DNA of 64,000 bases. Source: Paracoccaceae bacterium (lineage in GTDB: Bacteria > Pseudomonadota > Alphaproteobacteria > Rhodobacterales > Rhodobacteraceae). The notes beneath the pieces are model-generated. The model was not told where the DNA came from. It searched no databases and was given only the letters and a program-made list of their open reading frames with translations. The position numbers were made by a program, and so were the translations under genes. Position 1 is the stretch's first letter, and each line of letters starts with the position of its first letter. The stretch lies in NCBI GenBank assembly GCA_027484915.1, contig JAIXSA010000018.1, positions 7,059-71,058 on the forward strand, written 5' to 3'. This document shows, one piece after another, positions 27,933 through 42,182 of the stretch.

Positions 27933-27957
27933 GGAACCGCCCCTTGGCGCGGGAATT
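27933..27957 (+). promoter_or_regulatory. Possible EcfG-type autoregulatory promoter of the sigma gene
   Basis: GGAAC-N16-AATT (deviant -10). Confidence 0.4.
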
Positions 27958-27984
27958 AACCCGCGGGTGCAGGAGAAAGAACGA

Positions 27985-28458
27985 ATGTCCGACGACGTGC
28001 TGAGCCACATCCCCGCACTGCGGCTGTTCGCGAGGTCCTTGACCGGGCGCTACGGCGATGCGGATGATCTGGTGCAGGATACCCTGGTGCGCGCCATCGC
28101 CAGCGCACAGTCCTACACTCCGGGAACCAACATGCGCGCCTGGCTGTTCACGATCATGCGCAACCGCTTCTACAACGACCGGGTCAAGCTGGCCCGCGAA
28201 CGCCCCGGCGCCGAGGACTGCATTTCGTCCGTGCCGACGAGCCCGGAAACCCAATACTGGCATGTTCGGGGGCGCGAGATCGAGGCCGCGCTGATGGGCC
28301 TGCCGCAGGCCTACCGCGAGGCGGTGATGCTCGTCCTTGTCACGGGCGAAAGCTACCAGTCGGCCGCCGAAATCCTTGGCTGCGACATCGGCACGATCAA
28401 GAGCCGGATCAACCGTGGCCGCAAGCTTCTGCAGACAGCGCTGGGCGAAGAGGTCTGA
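27985..28458 (+). CDS. ECF sigma factor, EcfG/SigT (ECF15-like) general stress type
   Basis: LRLFARSLTG..DADDLVQDT, PGTNMRAWLFTIMRN, LP..YREA, SY..AAEI.GC.IGTIKSRINR. Confidence 0.88.
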   Translation: MSDDVLSHIPALRLFARSLTGRYGDADDLVQDTLVRAIASAQSYTPGTNMRAWLFTIMRNRFYNDRVKLARERPGAEDCISSVPTSPETQYWHVRGREIEAALMGLPQAYREAVMLVLVTGESYQSAAEILGCDIGTIKSRINRGRKLLQTALGEEV

Positions 28459-33294: not shown

Positions 33295-33465
33295 TCAGTC
33301 CTTGGCGGCGGTCTTGCGCGCGCCCGTCAGGGTGCGGTCCAGTTCCTGGGCAAGCTGGATGATGACATCGGGCACGGGTTCGGCCTTCGCATCCTCAAAC
33401 AGCCGGGCGGCCGCCGCGGACAGCGTCTTGTCCTTCTTGGACTCGGGTCCTGAATCCTGCGGCAT
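33295..33465 (-). CDS. nepR: NepR-like anti-sigma factor (56 aa)
   Basis: RLFEDAKAEPVPDVIIQLAQEL matches the NepR core (LY..v..EPVPDRF..LL..L); CAGGAA RBS. Confidence 0.65.
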   Translation of the reverse strand: MPQDSGPESKKDKTLSAAAARLFEDAKAEPVPDVIIQLAQELDRTLTGARKTAAKD

Positions 33466-33816
33466 TTCCTGTCTCCGACTGTCCCTGGTGCAGTGTATCG
33501 CAGGGCGGCGGCCAACACGACGACCAAATTTGGTCATTTCCGTGAAAGCGCGGCCCCAGAAGTTGTGTCCTGCCAACCTGCGCATTAAAGGTAGGGCGGT
33601 GCGGGAGTGCTTCCAGAGCGGAATCGCGTGGCGGCGGAAATGCGGCGGCCAGGGCGTGGTGACGGCGAAATCTGCAGGGCACTGGCCAATCGGCTGAGTT
33701 TCCGCAACACTTGTGCTGCGTATTCACCAGTACATTGACCGTTCGCGATGGGCACGTCTGCCCAAGGCCCTTGGGCCGACAGCAGGCATGTCGCTACCCA
33801 TTCAAGGAGACGGACC

Positions 33817-34392
33817 ATGCGACACAATCTGAATGGCAAGCGTGTGCTGGTCGTCGAGGACAACTACCTGCTGGCCCTGGACCTGGTGGACGAGCTTGAG
33901 GCGGCGAATGCCGTGGTGGTGGGGCCCTGCAACACGCTGAGCGATGCAAGCCTGCAAGTGGCGCACAGCGATCTGGCGGTGCTGGACGTGAACCTGAGCG
34001 GCGAGACGACGTTTCCGCTGGCTGACCGTCTGCAGGCGCTGGACGTGCCCTATGTCTTCTTCACGGGCTATGAAAAGGACGTGTTGCCGGTGCGCTTTGC
34101 CGGGGTCGACTGCATCACCAAGCCGCAGTCGCCCGCCATTGTCGTCGAGCTTTTGGACCTGCGCTCGCGCGAGGTGGGCAGCGACAGCATCCTGGAGCTA
34201 ATCCCGATTTTGCGCGCGCGTGCCCGTGGTTTTCTGGGTGATCCGCAGGCGGCGGACCGGCTTGTCGAACTTGCGCTGCAATGCGCGATCGACGATCCGG
34301 GGCCGATGCCCTCGGGCGCGCGGGTGGCCCCCTGGCTGATCCGTCTGATGGACGAGATCATGGCAGCGGGTCCAGGACACCTGCTGAACTAG
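33817..34392 (+). CDS. Response regulator: FATGUY-type receiver fused to C-terminal ECF sigma2-like domain
   Basis: VLVVEDN, AVLDVNL (D57), FFTGY, TKP; residues 123-178 align ungapped to region 2 of the 27985 sigma factor (20/56 identities, counted by hand). Confidence 0.85.
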   Translation: MRHNLNGKRVLVVEDNYLLALDLVDELEAANAVVVGPCNTLSDASLQVAHSDLAVLDVNLSGETTFPLADRLQALDVPYVFFTGYEKDVLPVRFAGVDCITKPQSPAIVVELLDLRSREVGSDSILELIPILRARARGFLGDPQAADRLVELALQCAIDDPGPMPSGARVAPWLIRLMDEIMAAGPGHLLN

Positions 34393-34404: not shown

Positions 34405-34431
34405 GGAACAAAGCCCCCGGCCGCCGGTTCC
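34405..34431. promoter_or_regulatory. Bidirectional overlapping EcfG-type promoter
   Basis: GGAAC-N17-GTTCC: plus strand GGAAC-N16-GGTT, minus strand GGAAC-N16-TGTT. Confidence 0.68.
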
Positions 34432-34515: not shown

Positions 34516-35115
34516 ATGAAACATCTATTTCTTGCCGTGCCCGCTGTGGCGCTGTTCGCCGCCGGGGCCTTTGCCCAGACCGATACCACCACTGGGGCGA
34601 CCACCGGCACCGACGCCGGTGCTACCGTGGATGCCACCGTTGACACCACGACGGGCGCCACCACCGGCACCAGCGCGGATGGGTCCGTGACCTTTGGGAC
34701 CAACTGGCCCTTGTCGGTCGGCACCACCTTCTTCATGGACGCCGACAGCGGCACGCTGCGCACCTCGGACGAGATCGGCAGCGGATGGCAGTCCCTGAGC
34801 CAGGAAGACCGCGACATGATCAAGGCGGACTGCCTGACCTTCATGGCGGCGCATGGTGATGCAGCGCCCACGACGGGGGCCGATGCTTCGACCGGGACCT
34901 CGACCGACACGACGGCCGGGGCGTCGACTGACGCTGGCGCTGCGACCGACACGGCGACCACCGGGACTGCGACGGATACCACGGCCGATGCCGCGACCAG
35001 CACCGATACGGCGACCGGAACCGGCACCGCATCGACCGAGGGAACCATCGCGACGGCCGTGGGTTATGACATGACCGAGATGAAGGCTATCTGCGAAGCA
35101 GTTCAGGGCCTCTGA
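34516..35115 (+). CDS. Secreted Thr/Ala/Asp/Gly-rich protein
   Basis: Signal peptide MKHLFLAVPAVALFAAGAFA; two T-rich tracts flank a folded core with two Cys; GAAAGGA RBS. Confidence 0.8.
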   Translation: MKHLFLAVPAVALFAAGAFAQTDTTTGATTGTDAGATVDATVDTTTGATTGTSADGSVTFGTNWPLSVGTTFFMDADSGTLRTSDEIGSGWQSLSQEDRDMIKADCLTFMAAHGDAAPTTGADASTGTSTDTTAGASTDAGAATDTATTGTATDTTADAATSTDTATGTGTASTEGTIATAVGYDMTEMKAICEAVQGL

Positions 35116-35406: not shown

Positions 35407-36000
35407 ATGGCACAGAAATACGCAGACGACGACTATGATCGCGGCGGTCAGGGTGGGCGCAGCCGCTCGTCCGCAGGCCGCGGTGGCTATGACGACGACA
35501 TGGAGCGCGGCTATGGCGGCCGTCGTGGCGGGTCCTCGTCCTCGCGCGGGTCGTCCGCATCCTCCCGCGATGAGGATGAGGATTACGGCAGCTACGGCGG
35601 TTCGCGCAGCGACTGGTCCGAAAGCAGCGGCCGGGGCTATGGGTCGCAAGGACGCGGCGGTCAGGGCTATGGCAGCGAAGGCGGCTATGGCCAGGGCTAC
35701 GGCCAAGGCGGTTATGGCCAGGGCGGCTACGGCCAGGGTGGCTCGCAGGGGACGGGCGGTCAGGCCGGATCGGGCCACGACCCGCACTACCACACCTGGC
35801 GCGAGCGCCAGATGCAGGCCCACGACGAGGACTACAAGGCCTTCAACGAAGAGCGCCAGAAGAAGTTCGAATCCGAGTTCGAGGAATGGCGCAAGAACCG
35901 CAAGTCGGGCTCGGGTTCGGGCGCGCAAGGCGGGTCGGGGTCCAGCATGAGCGGCAGCTCGGGCTCGGAAAGCGGCGGATCGTCCTCCAAGAAGAACTGA
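35407..36000 (+). CDS. Gly/Ser/Tyr-rich low-complexity stress protein with a short helical domain
   Basis: GQGGY repeats plus HDPHYHTWRERQ...DEDY...ERQKKFESEFEEWRK; GGAGAG RBS. Confidence 0.8.
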   Translation: MAQKYADDDYDRGGQGGRSRSSAGRGGYDDDMERGYGGRRGGSSSSRGSSASSRDEDEDYGSYGGSRSDWSESSGRGYGSQGRGGQGYGSEGGYGQGYGQGGYGQGGYGQGGSQGTGGQAGSGHDPHYHTWRERQMQAHDEDYKAFNEERQKKFESEFEEWRKNRKSGSGSGAQGGSGSSMSGSSGSESGGSSSKKN

Positions 36001-36100: not shown

Positions 36101-36153
36101 CAATGGGAAGCGGGTGGCGACAGCCGCCGCACCATCAGCAACGGAGAGCATCG

Positions 36154-36978
36154 ATGGACAGGAACTCGAATGACCGCGAGCGTGACGAGTATGGCCGTTT
36201 CAGCAGTGATGATGACCGGGGTGGCAGCTCGTCGCGTGGCGGCGGCCGGTCTTCCTGGCGCTATGACGACGACGACCGCCGCAGCTCGGCCAGCGACCGT
36301 GGCAGCGAGGACCGCGAACGGGACCGTTATGGCCGGTTCACAAGCGACGATGATGACCGGGGCGGACGCTCGTCCTCGGGGCGTTCGTCGGGTGGCCGCA
36401 GCAGCGCCAGCGATGACCGCGAACGCGACCGCAACGGCCGGTTCATGAGCGACGATGACGACCGCCGTTCCTCGTCTGGCCGTGGCCGGTCCTCGTCGCG
36501 CGATGACGACGATGACCGTCGCAGCGGCAGCGGGCGTGGCGGTAGTGACGACCGCGAACGGGATCGTTTCGGTCGGTTCATGAGCGATGATGATGACCGC
36601 CGTTCCTCGTCTGGCCGTGGCCGGTCCTCGTCGCGCGATGATGACGACGACCGCGAGCGGGATCGTTTCGGCCGGTTCATGAGCGATGACGACGACCGCC
36701 GGTCGGGTCGGTCTTCCGGTGGCGGCGACGGTCGCGGCTGGTTCGGCGATTCGCGGGGCCATGCCGAGGCGGCGCGCCGGGGCTGGGAAAACCGCGACGA
36801 CGATGATCGTGGCGGGCGGTCGTCCGGTGGGCGGTCCTCCTCCCGTGACGATGACGACGACCGTCGCGGCGGTTCACGCGCATCTTCGCGCGGGGGCGAT
36901 GACCGCAGCCAGGGTGGCTGGTTCGGGGATTCCGAAGGCCATGCCGAAGCCGCGCGCCGCGGTTGGCGCAACCGCTAA
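36154..36978 (+). CDS. Arg/Asp/Ser-rich repeat hydrophilin
   Basis: Five RERDxxGRFxSDDD units and two [17 protein letters not shown] units; GGAGAG RBS. Confidence 0.8.
36439..36653 (+). repeat. Intragenic direct repeat, 80 nt x2 at a 135-nt period
   Basis: 36439-36518 vs 36574-36653 differ at 4 positions, all GAC/GAT synonymous; a partial further copy lies at 36661-36700. Confidence 0.85.
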
Positions 36979-40218: not shown

Positions 40219-41898
40219 TCAGGTCGCGGGTGGGGCGATCACCGCAGCGGCCGGGGCGGCCAGGCGGCAGATCAGGCCGAGCGGATGATGGGTGATCTCG
40301 ACCGTGCCGCCAGTCTGCGCCGACAGGGCGTGCCTGATGACCTTGGAGCCGAATCCGGTGCGGTCCGGTTTCGTCACTGGCGGCCCGCCCCGTTCGGTCC
40401 ACAGCAGGGTAAAGACCTCACCCTTCTCGCCGGGCTCCAGGCCCCATTCGATCAGAATGGTCCCGCTCTCGGTGCTGAGCGCGCCGTATTTCACCGCGTT
40501 GGTGGAAAGCTCGTGGATAGACATGCCGATGGCAGTGGCGACATTGCCCTTGACCACAAGGTCCGGCCCCTTCGTCTCGACCCGCCCCTTGTCTTCGCCG
40601 ATGAAGGTTGCGACGCCGTTGGCGATCAGTTCGCGTAGGGGGGTGCTTGTCCACCCTGACTGCTTGAGCAGCCGGTTCGCCTCGCTGATGGCGTTCAGCC
40701 GGTCCGAGAAGACCCGCAAAGCCGCGTCGTTTCCGCCGTTGGCAAAGGTCTGCCGGGCGACGGCCTGGATCGTCGCCAGCAGGTTCTTTTCGCGGTGCTC
40801 CAGCTCATCCCGCATCAGGTCGCGCGCCTCGTCCGCCTTCTGGCGCGCCTCGCGGTTTGTCAGGACTTCGGTCAGGAAGGCATCAAGCGCCGCCCCGGCA
40901 TCGCCGATCTCGCCATTCTCCTCGCTCATCCCGGTGCGGGCCGTGGTCTTGCCGTTGCGCCAGGCGGTGATCGTGTCGATCAGGACCCCGACCGGACGCG
41001 CGATGAAGACGCGGGCGGTGTAGAAGGCCAGGAGCGACGCCAGCGCGGTGCCCAGCAGCGCGAGGCCCAGGCCCTGCAGCGCGACGGTGCGCATCGTCTC
41101 AAGCCCGGCGGAAATCGAGTAGCCGGCGCTGATGTAAAGCCCCGAGGCATTTGCGGCGGGCGGAAAATACCCCAGGATCCGACGGGTTCCGTCCTGGCTG
41201 AGCACCTCCATCGAGCCTGGGCGCGCCTCTTCAAGGTAGGACATGAATTCAGGCCGGATACTGGTTCCGACGAAGGTTTGCGGATCGGGAACCCGTGCCA
41301 GGATGATTCCGCCGCGGTCGACGATGGTCAGCGAATTCCCAGGCGCAAGCGAGCGGCGCTGCAGACGCTGCTCCATCCATTTCAGGTCCAGGTGGGCCAC
41401 CGCTGTACCCGGCGTCCCATTGCCATCCTCGCCAATTTGCAAGACCAGCGGCAGGCGCGGGGCGCCGTTGGCGGTTCGGTGGAACGTGCCTGGCAGTGGC
41501 TTGCCCGAAGTCGCCTGTGCGATCAGCTCGGCCGGGGCCAGGTCCAGGCTGGCCGGAGGAACCGAACTGCAGCGGATGCTGCCGTCCGGGTTCAGGATGT
41601 AAAGCTGGGCGATGAAGTCAACCGCCTTGACCGCATCGGCCAGCAGACCAGAGCAGGCGCTGTCCCCCGTGCGCACGACCGGGGCCGCAGCCAGGGTGCG
41701 CAGGACGCTTTCCAGGCCTGCGAAGGTCTGCTCGACTTCGAGCGAGACCAGTTCTGCGGTCCGCAGGGCATCGCTGTGCAGGTCGGCGGTCCGGTCGCGC
41801 TGAATGGTGATGATGTTGGAGATGGCGATTGCCACCGCGGGCAGGAGGGCCACGGCCGTTACCGCGAACAGGCGTGAAGACAGCGACTTAAGCCGCAC
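40219..41898 (-). CDS. Membrane HWE-family sensor histidine kinase with Cache-like periplasmic domain
   Basis: Two TM helices; ELEHREKNLL (HRxxN), HELSTNAVKYGALS, WTERGGP, GFGS; GTG start at 41898 after GGGAGG. Confidence 0.9.
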   Translation of the reverse strand: MRLKSLSSRLFAVTAVALLPAVAIAISNIITIQRDRTADLHSDALRTAELVSLEVEQTFAGLESVLRTLAAAPVVRTGDSACSGLLADAVKAVDFIAQLYILNPDGSIRCSSVPPASLDLAPAELIAQATSGKPLPGTFHRTANGAPRLPLVLQIGEDGNGTPGTAVAHLDLKWMEQRLQRRSLAPGNSLTIVDRGGIILARVPDPQTFVGTSIRPEFMSYLEEARPGSMEVLSQDGTRRILGYFPPAANASGLYISAGYSISAGLETMRTVALQGLGLALLGTALASLLAFYTARVFIARPVGVLIDTITAWRNGKTTARTGMSEENGEIGDAGAALDAFLTEVLTNREARQKADEARDLMRDELEHREKNLLATIQAVARQTFANGGNDAALRVFSDRLNAISEANRLLKQSGWTSTPLRELIANGVATFIGEDKGRVETKGPDLVVKGNVATAIGMSIHELSTNAVKYGALSTESGTILIEWGLEPGEKGEVFTLLWTERGGPPVTKPDRTGFGSKVIRHALSAQTGGTVEITHHPLGLICRLAAPAAAVIAPPAT

Positions 41899-42182
41899 CC
41901 GACGCCCTCCCCCTTTCGGATATTCCCGTCGGCATCTTCGCAAGTTTCTTGGACCGCACAAGCTAAACTTGGCCATGTGTGGCTTCAATTCGGACAACTG
42001 CCGATTGATCATGAAAGTGCCGTAGCGGCAGCGCGTTTCAAGATTGATGCAAACTTGTGCACTCCGCCCACTTTGGCGTCAGATGCGCGGCTTTGCCCGG
42101 TCCGGCAGGCGGGTGATGCCGGATCGTGAAAGACCCGGACGCGTCAAACCCGTAGCTCTGGGGCAAGCCACGGAAGCCGCGC

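Follow-up and report, generated by a model that had tools for sequence, protein, structure and literature searches.

A receiver and sigma-2 fusion protein beside a NepR-like gene as a candidate PhyR-like regulator in a Paracoccaceae stress island

We analysed a 64,000-nt stretch of genomic DNA from a Paracoccaceae bacterium (contig JAIXSA010000018.1 of assembly GCA_027484915.1; the whole stretch is referred to as the window), which derives from an aquatic or freshwater metagenome, and describe a gene for a 191-amino-acid (aa) protein, here named REC-sigma2, in which an N-terminal receiver is joined to a C-terminal sigma-2 domain. [quoted passage not shown] Reasoning by analogy with PhyR, we propose, with a probability of roughly 55%, that REC-sigma2 is a phosphorylation-controlled sigma-2 mimic that would capture a NepR-like anti-sigma factor encoded next to it and so free a non-canonical EcfG sigma factor. 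The evidence computed here comprises the domain architecture, the fold and homology of the sigma-2 domain, the family of the NepR-like neighbour, the EcfG type of the sigma factor, a gene linkage that recurs across loci and an enrichment of promoter motifs.

Domain architecture of REC-sigma2

The gene and its two domains are as follows.

33817..34392, + strand: REC-sigma2 gene (191 aa); open reading frame (ORF) with an AAGGAG ribosome-binding site, Pfam Response_reg and PhyR_sigma2 matches and full-length homologues
33838..34170, + strand: FATGUY-type receiver, residues 8-118; PDB sequence search, invariant residues and AlphaFold2 (AF2) model
34183..34365, + strand: sigma-2-like three-helix domain (regions 2.1-2.3), residues 123-183; PF22029, PDB profile search, AF2 and Foldseek

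A first-pass annotation, made from the sequence alone, had called the same 191-aa protein, and its translation was confirmed. The AAGGAG ribosome-binding site lies 8 nt 5′ of the ATG. A 214-aa reading of the ORF from 33748 was rejected; as this reading lacks a ribosome-binding site and homologues are about 190 aa long, we take 33817 as the start.

Pfam, the family alignment and the AF2 model agree on a receiver at the N-terminus and a sigma-2-like domain at the C-terminus. Response_reg matched residues 10-110 at 26.5 bits, under its gathering score of 30.2. The closest PDB sequences are the FATGUY receivers Sma0114 (2lpm, E 5e-14) and SdrG (5ieb, E 1.2e-12), and PhyR receivers reached only about 2e-5 in the PDB sequence search. 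Residues 77-85 read VPYVFFTGY, which is of the PFxFATGY type defined for the receivers of SdrG, MrrA and Sma0114 (PMC5964349) and replaces the usual Y-T coupling residues. The assignment to the FATGUY receivers made in the first pass is thereby borne out. Across 25 aligned family members, neither the phospho-acceptor D57 nor E14 varies, and D15 and K102 are nearly invariant; E14/D15 form the acidic pocket. Based on the conservation of these four residues, the receiver looks competent for phosphorylation. The full-length AF2 model gave the receiver a predicted local distance difference test (pLDDT) score of 85-91 and attached the sigma-2 mimic directly after receiver helix alpha5.

Residues 123-178 align without gaps to residues 3-58 of the window's own extracytoplasmic function (ECF) sigma factor; a hand recount agreed with the 20 of 56 identities counted earlier. 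The Pfam family PF22029 (PhyR_sigma2) matched residues 126-178 over profile positions 2-54 of 55, with an E-value of 2.7e-5 and 24.6 bits, under the gathering score of 27. In a phmmer search of all 941 ORFs in the six frames of the window, REC-sigma2 matched only the sigma factor besides itself (E 5.7e-4), and the reverse searches at other loci yielded E-values from 1e-4 to 6e-8. Plain BLASTP of REC-sigma2 against the window sigma factor was not significant (E 0.084). A profile built from 21 C-terminal domains (A6) and searched against the PDB returned at its top 5uxx_A, the EcfG-type sigma factor of Bartonella quintana solved with NepR (E 4.4e-4), followed by the sigma-2 domains of SigR and SigC and then by the PhyR sigma-like domains 2lfw_A (0.42) and 9cb6 (1.1).

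In a Foldseek search with the whole protein, receiver matches dominated and the result was uninformative on the C-terminal domain, which was then modelled alone. The AF2 model of this domain is a three-helix bundle (pLDDT 79). All of its top Foldseek matches in the PDB are sigma-2 domains, with template modelling (TM) scores of 0.70-0.76. They include the PhyR sigma-like domain bound to NepR (3t0y, TM 0.70), RT-PhyR (9cb6, 9by5), SigR sigma-2 (1h3l), Mycobacterium tuberculosis SigH sigma-2 (TM up to 0.76) and the EcfG/NepR complex 5uxx. The Foldseek E-values are weak (0.2-3), as the domain has only 60 residues. We conclude that the C-terminal domain of REC-sigma2 is a sigma-2 domain by fold and homology, the profile and fold searches both agreeing with the first reading. 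Since the protein ends 13 residues past the sigma-2-like stretch, it has no sigma-4, and the reversed domain order without sigma-4 that had been noted for it holds.

Helices 1 and 2 of the C-terminal domain are the most conserved part of REC-sigma2, with 58% mean pairwise identity versus 46% for the receiver. The 25-member alignment contains the invariant motif P-x-L-R-x-x-A-R ... A-D-R-L-V-E-x-x-L-x-x-A ... W-L. According to the profile-versus-PDB alignments, the helix-1 motif [LI]P-x-LR-x-x-A is common to this domain, EcfG and PhyR, but not to SigR. Where real ECF sigma factors almost always have D-L-V-Q in region 2.2, REC-sigma2 has an invariant D-R-L-V-E; the PhyR of Sphingomonas has D-K-Y-V-R at the equivalent position. 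The change would fit a decoy that keeps the sigma-2 fold and loses contact with core RNA polymerase (RNAP).

A free sigma-2 domain could also compete at the beta-prime clamp helices of RNAP, or bind the sigma-4 of EcfG-type factors, and modulate the holoenzyme under control of the receiver. The sigma-2 fold is kept, region 2.1-2.2 is the main core-binding determinant of sigma factors, and two-subunit sigma factors such as SigO-RsoA show sigma-2 fragments acting in trans. We nevertheless regard this as quite improbable, given the invariant replacement in region 2.2 and a co-located sigma factor that has a full sigma-2 and sigma-4 of its own; the linkage to a NepR-like ORF would also be left unexplained.

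The proposed capture of NepR invites comparison with PhyR. Like PhyR, REC-sigma2 joins a receiver to an EcfG-mimicking domain and is linked to genes of the nepR and ecfG type and to HWE/HisKA2 kinases. Its mimic has likewise lost the D-L-V-Q signature of region 2.2, and the partner-switch logic of sigma mimicry is likely shared. Unlike PhyR, in which sigma-2 and sigma-4 precede the receiver, it has the receiver first and sigma-2 only, with a FATGUY-type receiver and a mimic that resembles the sigma-2 of real EcfG more closely than the PhyR sigma-like domain. The NCBIfam model for PhyR (NF006623) scored 43.8 bits against a cut-off of 240, and only over the receiver part. REC-sigma2 thus falls outside the PhyR family, as domain order, sigma-4 and NCBIfam score all fail, while its predicted working is PhyR-like. 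A circularly permuted PhyR was rejected as an origin, the receiver not being PhyR-like and the sigma-2 domain being closer to true EcfG. Because the receiver is closer to SdrG and Sma0114, and the mimic closer to true EcfG, than either is to the corresponding part of PhyR, the fusion looks to have arisen independently of PhyR, which supports the independent assembly suggested before.

Among the FATGUY regulators (SdrG, MrrA, Mext_0407, Sma0114) the receiver finds its best match in both sequence and structure, and association with HWE kinases and the stress response is common to them (PMC5964349) and REC-sigma2. Those regulators are single-domain phosphorelay hubs, whereas REC-sigma2 carries a conserved 70-aa sigma-2 output domain.

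A word-indexed search with REC-sigma2 gave about 100 clusters of full-length homologues, and an exhaustive profile search gave 171 clusters at 50% identity (E<=1e-30). Among the best 150 of these 171, most match end to end at 183-270 aa, the typical length being about 190 aa. Members were found in Rhodobacterales (Tabrizicola, Halovulum, Actibacterium, Pseudooceanicola, Wenxinia, Paracoccus, Ketogulonicigenium), Hyphomicrobiales (Aquibium, Mesorhizobium, Ensifer, Shinella, Rhizobium, Martelella) and Rhodospirillales (Fodinicurvata), and are always named “response regulator”, “CheY-like” or “hypothetical”. A genome-contig search with the single REC-sigma2 protein detected one locus, in a Tabrizicola metagenome-assembled genome (Paracoccaceae), at 77% protein identity. 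When 10 kb were compared with plasmids by megablast, only fragments of housekeeping or stress genes matched. A literature search for the REC-sigma2 architecture, PF22029 or related terms found no description.

That both domains score under their Pfam gathering thresholds might be expected of a decaying fusion without specific output, a receiver that gained a sigma-factor fragment by chance. We consider this very improbable in view of the size of the family, the end-to-end matches at about 190 aa of most of its best 150 clusters, and the catalytic and C-terminal residues that are invariant in the sampled members from three alphaproteobacterial orders.

The same parts also occur in other combinations. 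The metagenomic protein P0272 (301 aa) is a complete ECF sigma factor, with D-D-L-V-Q-E-T-L and sigma-4 kept, followed by a C-terminal FATGUY receiver, and represents a third arrangement. Two further proteins, P0243 and P0258, carry tandem FATGUY receivers.

The NepR-like neighbour and its linkage to REC-sigma2

The small gene next to REC-sigma2 is the following.

33295..33465, − strand: NepR-like protein (56 aa), candidate anti-sigma factor; profile A5 against the PDB and sub-threshold Pfam NepR matches in relatives

It is divergent from REC-sigma2, the two genes being 351 bp apart, and GGAGA precedes its start. The protein is laid out as helix 1, an E-P-V-P linker and helix 2. Taken alone, it had no match in Pfam, NCBIfam or the PDB. 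It has just 11 close relatives, all unnamed, and a profile made from these only (A4) missed NepR in the PDB. Small ORFs of the same pattern (a helix, an E-x-[VI]-P linker and a helix ending in L-A-x-x-L) adjoin REC-sigma2 in Mesorhizobium, Shinella, Martelella, Ketogulonicigenium and on several Paracoccus plasmids. A profile of 13 small ORFs adjoining REC-sigma2 genes, other genera included (A5), reached the Bartonella NepR sequences 5uxx_B (E 1.8e-4) and 4qic_B (2.6e-4), that of Sphingomonas (2lfw_B, 0.11) and that of Caulobacter (3t0y_B, 0.48). All four PDB NepR sequences are within the top six of 177,635, and the alignment spans the alpha1-linker-alpha2 core of NepR as defined in PMC4551977.

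Relatives of the 56-aa protein score 13-20.5 bits with Pfam NepR (PF18557), below the gathering score of 25.7, and two Martelella members of the subfamily are named “Anti-sigma factor NepR domain-containing” in UniRef. The subfamily has 71 clusters, nearly all “hypothetical”, and none is a canonical annotated NepR. Judged from the A5 matches, the sub-threshold Pfam matches and the UniRef labels, the ORF belongs to a separate short subfamily of NepR relatives and has a putative anti-sigma role. The divergent NepR-like neighbour reported in the first-pass annotation therefore stands, and an HMM (hidden Markov model) scan found it to be the sole NepR-like ORF in the window. Like NepR, the protein has a helix-linker-helix core with the E-x-[VI]-P linker; unlike NepR, it belongs to a short unannotated subfamily, has no Pfam NepR match and is not encoded in a sigma-factor operon.

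We surveyed the gene neighbourhood of REC-sigma2 in 18 loci from more than 10 genera, using HMM scans over ±10 kb. In the NepR-like scan, module matches (E<=0.003) and noise (E>=0.4) were separated by a clear gap. The counts were as follows.

NepR-like ORF within ±10 kb: 13 of 18 loci, as the next ORF in 9
EcfG-like sigma factor within ±10 kb: 10 of 18 loci
HWE kinase within ±10 kb: 9 of 18 loci

The pairing of REC-sigma2 with a NepR-like gene thus recurs; the idea of a peculiarity of one locus did not survive the profile search with its 171 clusters. REC-sigma2, the sigma factor gene and the NepR-like gene are all packed into about 5 kb in Paracoccus AK26, Shinella, Ketogulonicigenium, Ensifer and Martelella. 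An HWE kinase is also found within that distance in the last three, lies about 4.5 kb further off in Shinella, and was not found in AK26. The sigma factor encoded in the Paracoccus plasmid modules of P. marcusii and P. sp. Arc7-R13 shares 63.5% identity with that of the window; its gene is divergent from the NepR-like gene, and REC-sigma2 follows 5.4 kb downstream of sigma in an island of catalase, DUF892 and trehalose genes. REC-sigma2 loci are usually in stress islands and often on plasmids. Of 38 regions of 350 bp taken upstream of module genes in other loci, 13 contain a strict GGAAC...GTT motif versus about 0.5 expected, a rough comparison in which the expectation was taken from the shuffle rate of the window. 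The recurrent linkage strengthens the case for a putative anti-anti-sigma function through NepR capture.

Large CheB-CheR-PAS-HWE kinases are found at REC-sigma2 in Actibacterium, Halovulum, Ketogulonicigenium, Martelella and P. liaowanqingii. Such proteins, of about 1035-1165 aa and annotated “CheR family methyltransferase”, directly adjoin REC-sigma2 in loci L010, L011, L017, L019 and L020 (five genera); an extra single-domain receiver is also present in L010 and L020. Orphan copies of REC-sigma2 lie beside TamB/Omp85 in a conserved chromosomal context (Aquibium and a relative) and beside DUF2934.

These neighbourhoods would also suit a phosphorelay hub or phosphate sink among HWE/HisKA2 kinases, whose C-terminal helices would only tune stability or kinase docking, without NepR binding. 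Such a role agrees with the similarity of the receiver to Sma0114 and SdrG, with the CheB-CheR-PAS-HWE kinases that often adjoin the gene, at times together with a separate single-domain receiver, and with the orphan copies that have neither NepR nor sigma nearby. It is less easily reconciled with a C-terminal domain that is at least as conserved as the receiver, has an invariant sigma-2 motif and is specifically of the EcfG type, or with a NepR-like ORF directly adjacent at half of the loci (9/18), and we consider it unlikely.

Three further observations concern the neighbours of REC-sigma2. Small DUF2934 proteins are encoded adjacent to or divergent from it (L014 7406-7657; L016, three copies; L018 10772-10993; L022 9535-9912), and DUF2934 recurs at loci where that position has no NepR-like gene. 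In L001 (9365-9910, − strand), a 63%-identical relative, REC-sigma2 and sigma are intact and the NepR-like ORF has degenerated, with helix 1 gone, “EPMPD...LDRTL” as the sole remnant and no gene called. On Paracoccus plasmids a FATGUY single-domain receiver lies beside the NepR-like/sigma pair (L012 1200-1621, L015 9103-9524) and is split by the same frameshift in two Paracoccus species into ORFs of 41 aa and 103 aa, which would make it either a conserved pseudogene or a case of programmed frameshifting.

Sigma factor, kinase and stress island in the window

Two other regulatory genes of the window would take part in the proposed switch.

27985..28458, + strand: EcfG-type ECF sigma factor (157 aa), presumed final target; Pfam Sigma70_r2, PhyR_sigma2 and Sigma70_r4_2, and PDB
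40219..42012, − strand: sensor kinase with dCache and HWE_HK domains, candidate phosphodonor; Pfam HWE_HK (E 1.7e-19) and dCache_1

The best PDB match of the sigma factor is the Bartonella EcfG 5uxx_A (E 1.9e-32), far above other ECF sigma factors, and its gene sits 5.3 kb upstream of REC-sigma2. This match and the copies of the cognate promoter motif GGAAC-N16/17-(C/G)GTT in the vicinity place it among the EcfG (ECF15) sigma factors. No small ORF or nepR was found upstream of the sigma factor gene, and the canonical arrangement of a nepR-ecfG operon divergent from phyR is not seen there. Because it lacks an upstream nepR, we class it, from gene context, as a “non-canonical” EcfG copy in the sense of Jans et al. 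(PMC3892343). [quoted passage not shown] The window sigma factor resembles such copies (R. etli EcfG2, Sinorhizobium meliloti RpoE5-type copies) in being of the EcfG type, without upstream nepR, in a stress island and with plasmid-borne relatives. It differs from R. etli ecfG2 in being accompanied by a dedicated pair of NepR-like and REC-sigma2 genes.

No receiver domain other than that of REC-sigma2 was detected in the 64-kb window. The window therefore has no phyR, as had been stated earlier, and this says little about phyR in the genome. The kinase at 40219..42012 has an orthologue at the same relative position in the Tabrizicola locus (L008).

Where 5.1 copies of the motif GGAAC-N15-18-GTT would be expected, the window has 28, a count not reached in any of 100 shuffles. 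Almost all of the sites cluster at 17.5-39.3 kb. The stress island in this interval (17500-39300) holds two Ku genes with LigD, a second ATP-dependent ligase, DUF892, SDR and PRC-barrel genes, a Pur_DNA_glyco glycosylase, a large catalase and many small ORFs. Comparison of site and gene coordinates places most sites just upstream of the Ku, DUF892, PRC-barrel and DNA glycosylase genes and of several genes for small proteins.

The intergenic region between the NepR-like and REC-sigma2 genes has neither a strict EcfG-type promoter nor a sigma-70 consensus, and, one block aside, its conservation stops at the closest relative. A search for RNA runs containing the locus found none. One relaxed candidate was noted.

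33516..33541, − strand: tentative relaxed EcfG-type promoter of the NepR-like gene (GGAAA-N17-CGTG); L008 has GGAAA-N17-CGTT there

Overlapping this candidate is a perfect palindrome, GACCAAATTTGGTC, at 33522..33535, which precedes the NepR-like start by about 60 bp. The Tabrizicola relative L008 has kept it, and it resembles an operator for some regulator. At the sigma factor gene, GGAAC lies 48 bp upstream of the ATG, with AATTAA in place of CGTT/GGTT (27933-27959). This may reflect a different −10 preference of the non-canonical sigma factor; R. etli EcfG2 reportedly has a different −10 preference.

Just past the REC-sigma2 stop, at 34405-34431, GGAAC...GGTTCC forms an EcfG-type promoter motif on both strands and an inverted repeat; the candidate on the + strand would drive a gene for a secreted 199-aa protein (34516..35115). 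Two low-complexity proteins (35407-36000 and 36103-36978) are both encoded after GGAAC...GGTT motifs, and Pfam matches neither. GGYGQG repeats abound in one of them, while the other combines five or six repeats starting RERD-R-[FY]-GRF-[MT] with two motifs starting GWFGDS.

Proposed switch and its significance

We propose that in unstressed cells the NepR-like protein would keep the EcfG-type sigma factor inactive. Under stress, HWE-family kinases would phosphorylate D57 of the FATGUY-type receiver, which would expose or reshape the C-terminal mimic of regions 2.1-2.3 of an EcfG-type sigma. The mimic would then bind the NepR-like protein and release the sigma factor, which would transcribe the surrounding stress island from GGAAC-N16/17-GTT promoters. 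We infer the binding of the C-terminal domain to NepR, its dependence on phosphorylation, the kinase involved, the sign of the effect and the accessory status discussed below.

Several points weigh against this proposal. The single sequence matches of the C-terminal domain are modest (Pfam under the gathering score, PDB profile E about 1e-4), and the placement of the two domains in the AF2 model is uncertain, with a predicted TM score (pTM) of 0.58. A strict EcfG-type promoter is missing at the three regulator genes of the window. An intact NepR-like ORF is missing from the neighbourhood at five of the 18 loci (L003, L010, L021, L022 and, in effect, L001). REC-sigma2 had been said to occupy the genomic position of PhyR, which is right for the window locus with its divergent NepR-like gene and, as a general trait, applies to some loci only; at five of the 18, both a NepR-like ORF and an EcfG-like sigma factor are lacking nearby. 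Finally, NepR contacts both sigma-2 and sigma-4 in the PhyR-SL/NepR and EcfG/NepR structures. A mimic of sigma-2 only would therefore offer about half of the NepR interface, which would entail weaker binding, a second contact surface supplied by the receiver, or a ternary complex.

In an alternative logic of binding, the mimic would act as a constitutive buffer released by phosphorylation, or as a co-anti-sigma factor in a ternary complex where NepR bridges sigma-4 and the mimic, so that the response would be damped. The same linkage and fold evidence applies here, a sigma-2-only partner would leave the second helix of NepR free for another partner, and negative single-domain regulators such as LovR offer a precedent. 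For the FATGUY receivers MrrA and SdrG, a hub role is described (PMC5964349). The sequence does not tell the sign of the effect; as the PhyR precedent favours activation, we think damping improbable.

Returning to NepR capture with release of the sigma factor, we next consider its relation to canonical PhyR. Ensifer and Mesorhizobium, in which REC-sigma2 is found, carry canonical PhyR, and we take Rhodobacter sphaeroides to be of the same family (Paracoccaceae) as the Tabrizicola-like source organism. Since R. sphaeroides also has a canonical phyR-nepR-ecfG locus (PMC5830050), REC-sigma2 is probably accessory to canonical PhyR rather than a replacement for it.

Given its recurrence in Alphaproteobacteria with NepR-like, EcfG-type and HWE kinase genes, REC-sigma2 is probably a second, independently built means to turn on a general stress response. 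A wider proposal, to which we give somewhat less than even odds, is that sigma mimicry evolved twice, the second anti-anti-sigma family having arisen when the sigma-2 half of EcfG was joined to a FATGUY hub receiver. With a short NepR of its own, a non-canonical EcfG and CheB/CheR-PAS-HWE or Cache-HWE kinases, this family would constitute a self-contained, often plasmid-borne and potentially transferable stress module that captures NepR by sigma-2 only.

REC-sigma2, linked to its own NepR-like gene, is a concrete candidate regulator for non-canonical EcfG copies. If the proposal is true, sigma mimicry works with sigma-2 alone, which bears on how NepR recognizes its partners, and promiscuous FATGUY hub receivers are tied directly to an output domain. 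Cultivable carriers exist in Paracoccus, Ketogulonicigenium, Shinella, Martelella and Ensifer. As many copies are on plasmids in stress-gene islands (catalase, Ku/LigD, DUF892 and trehalose genes), the REC-sigma2 module may be a route by which regulated stress tolerance is transferred between strains.

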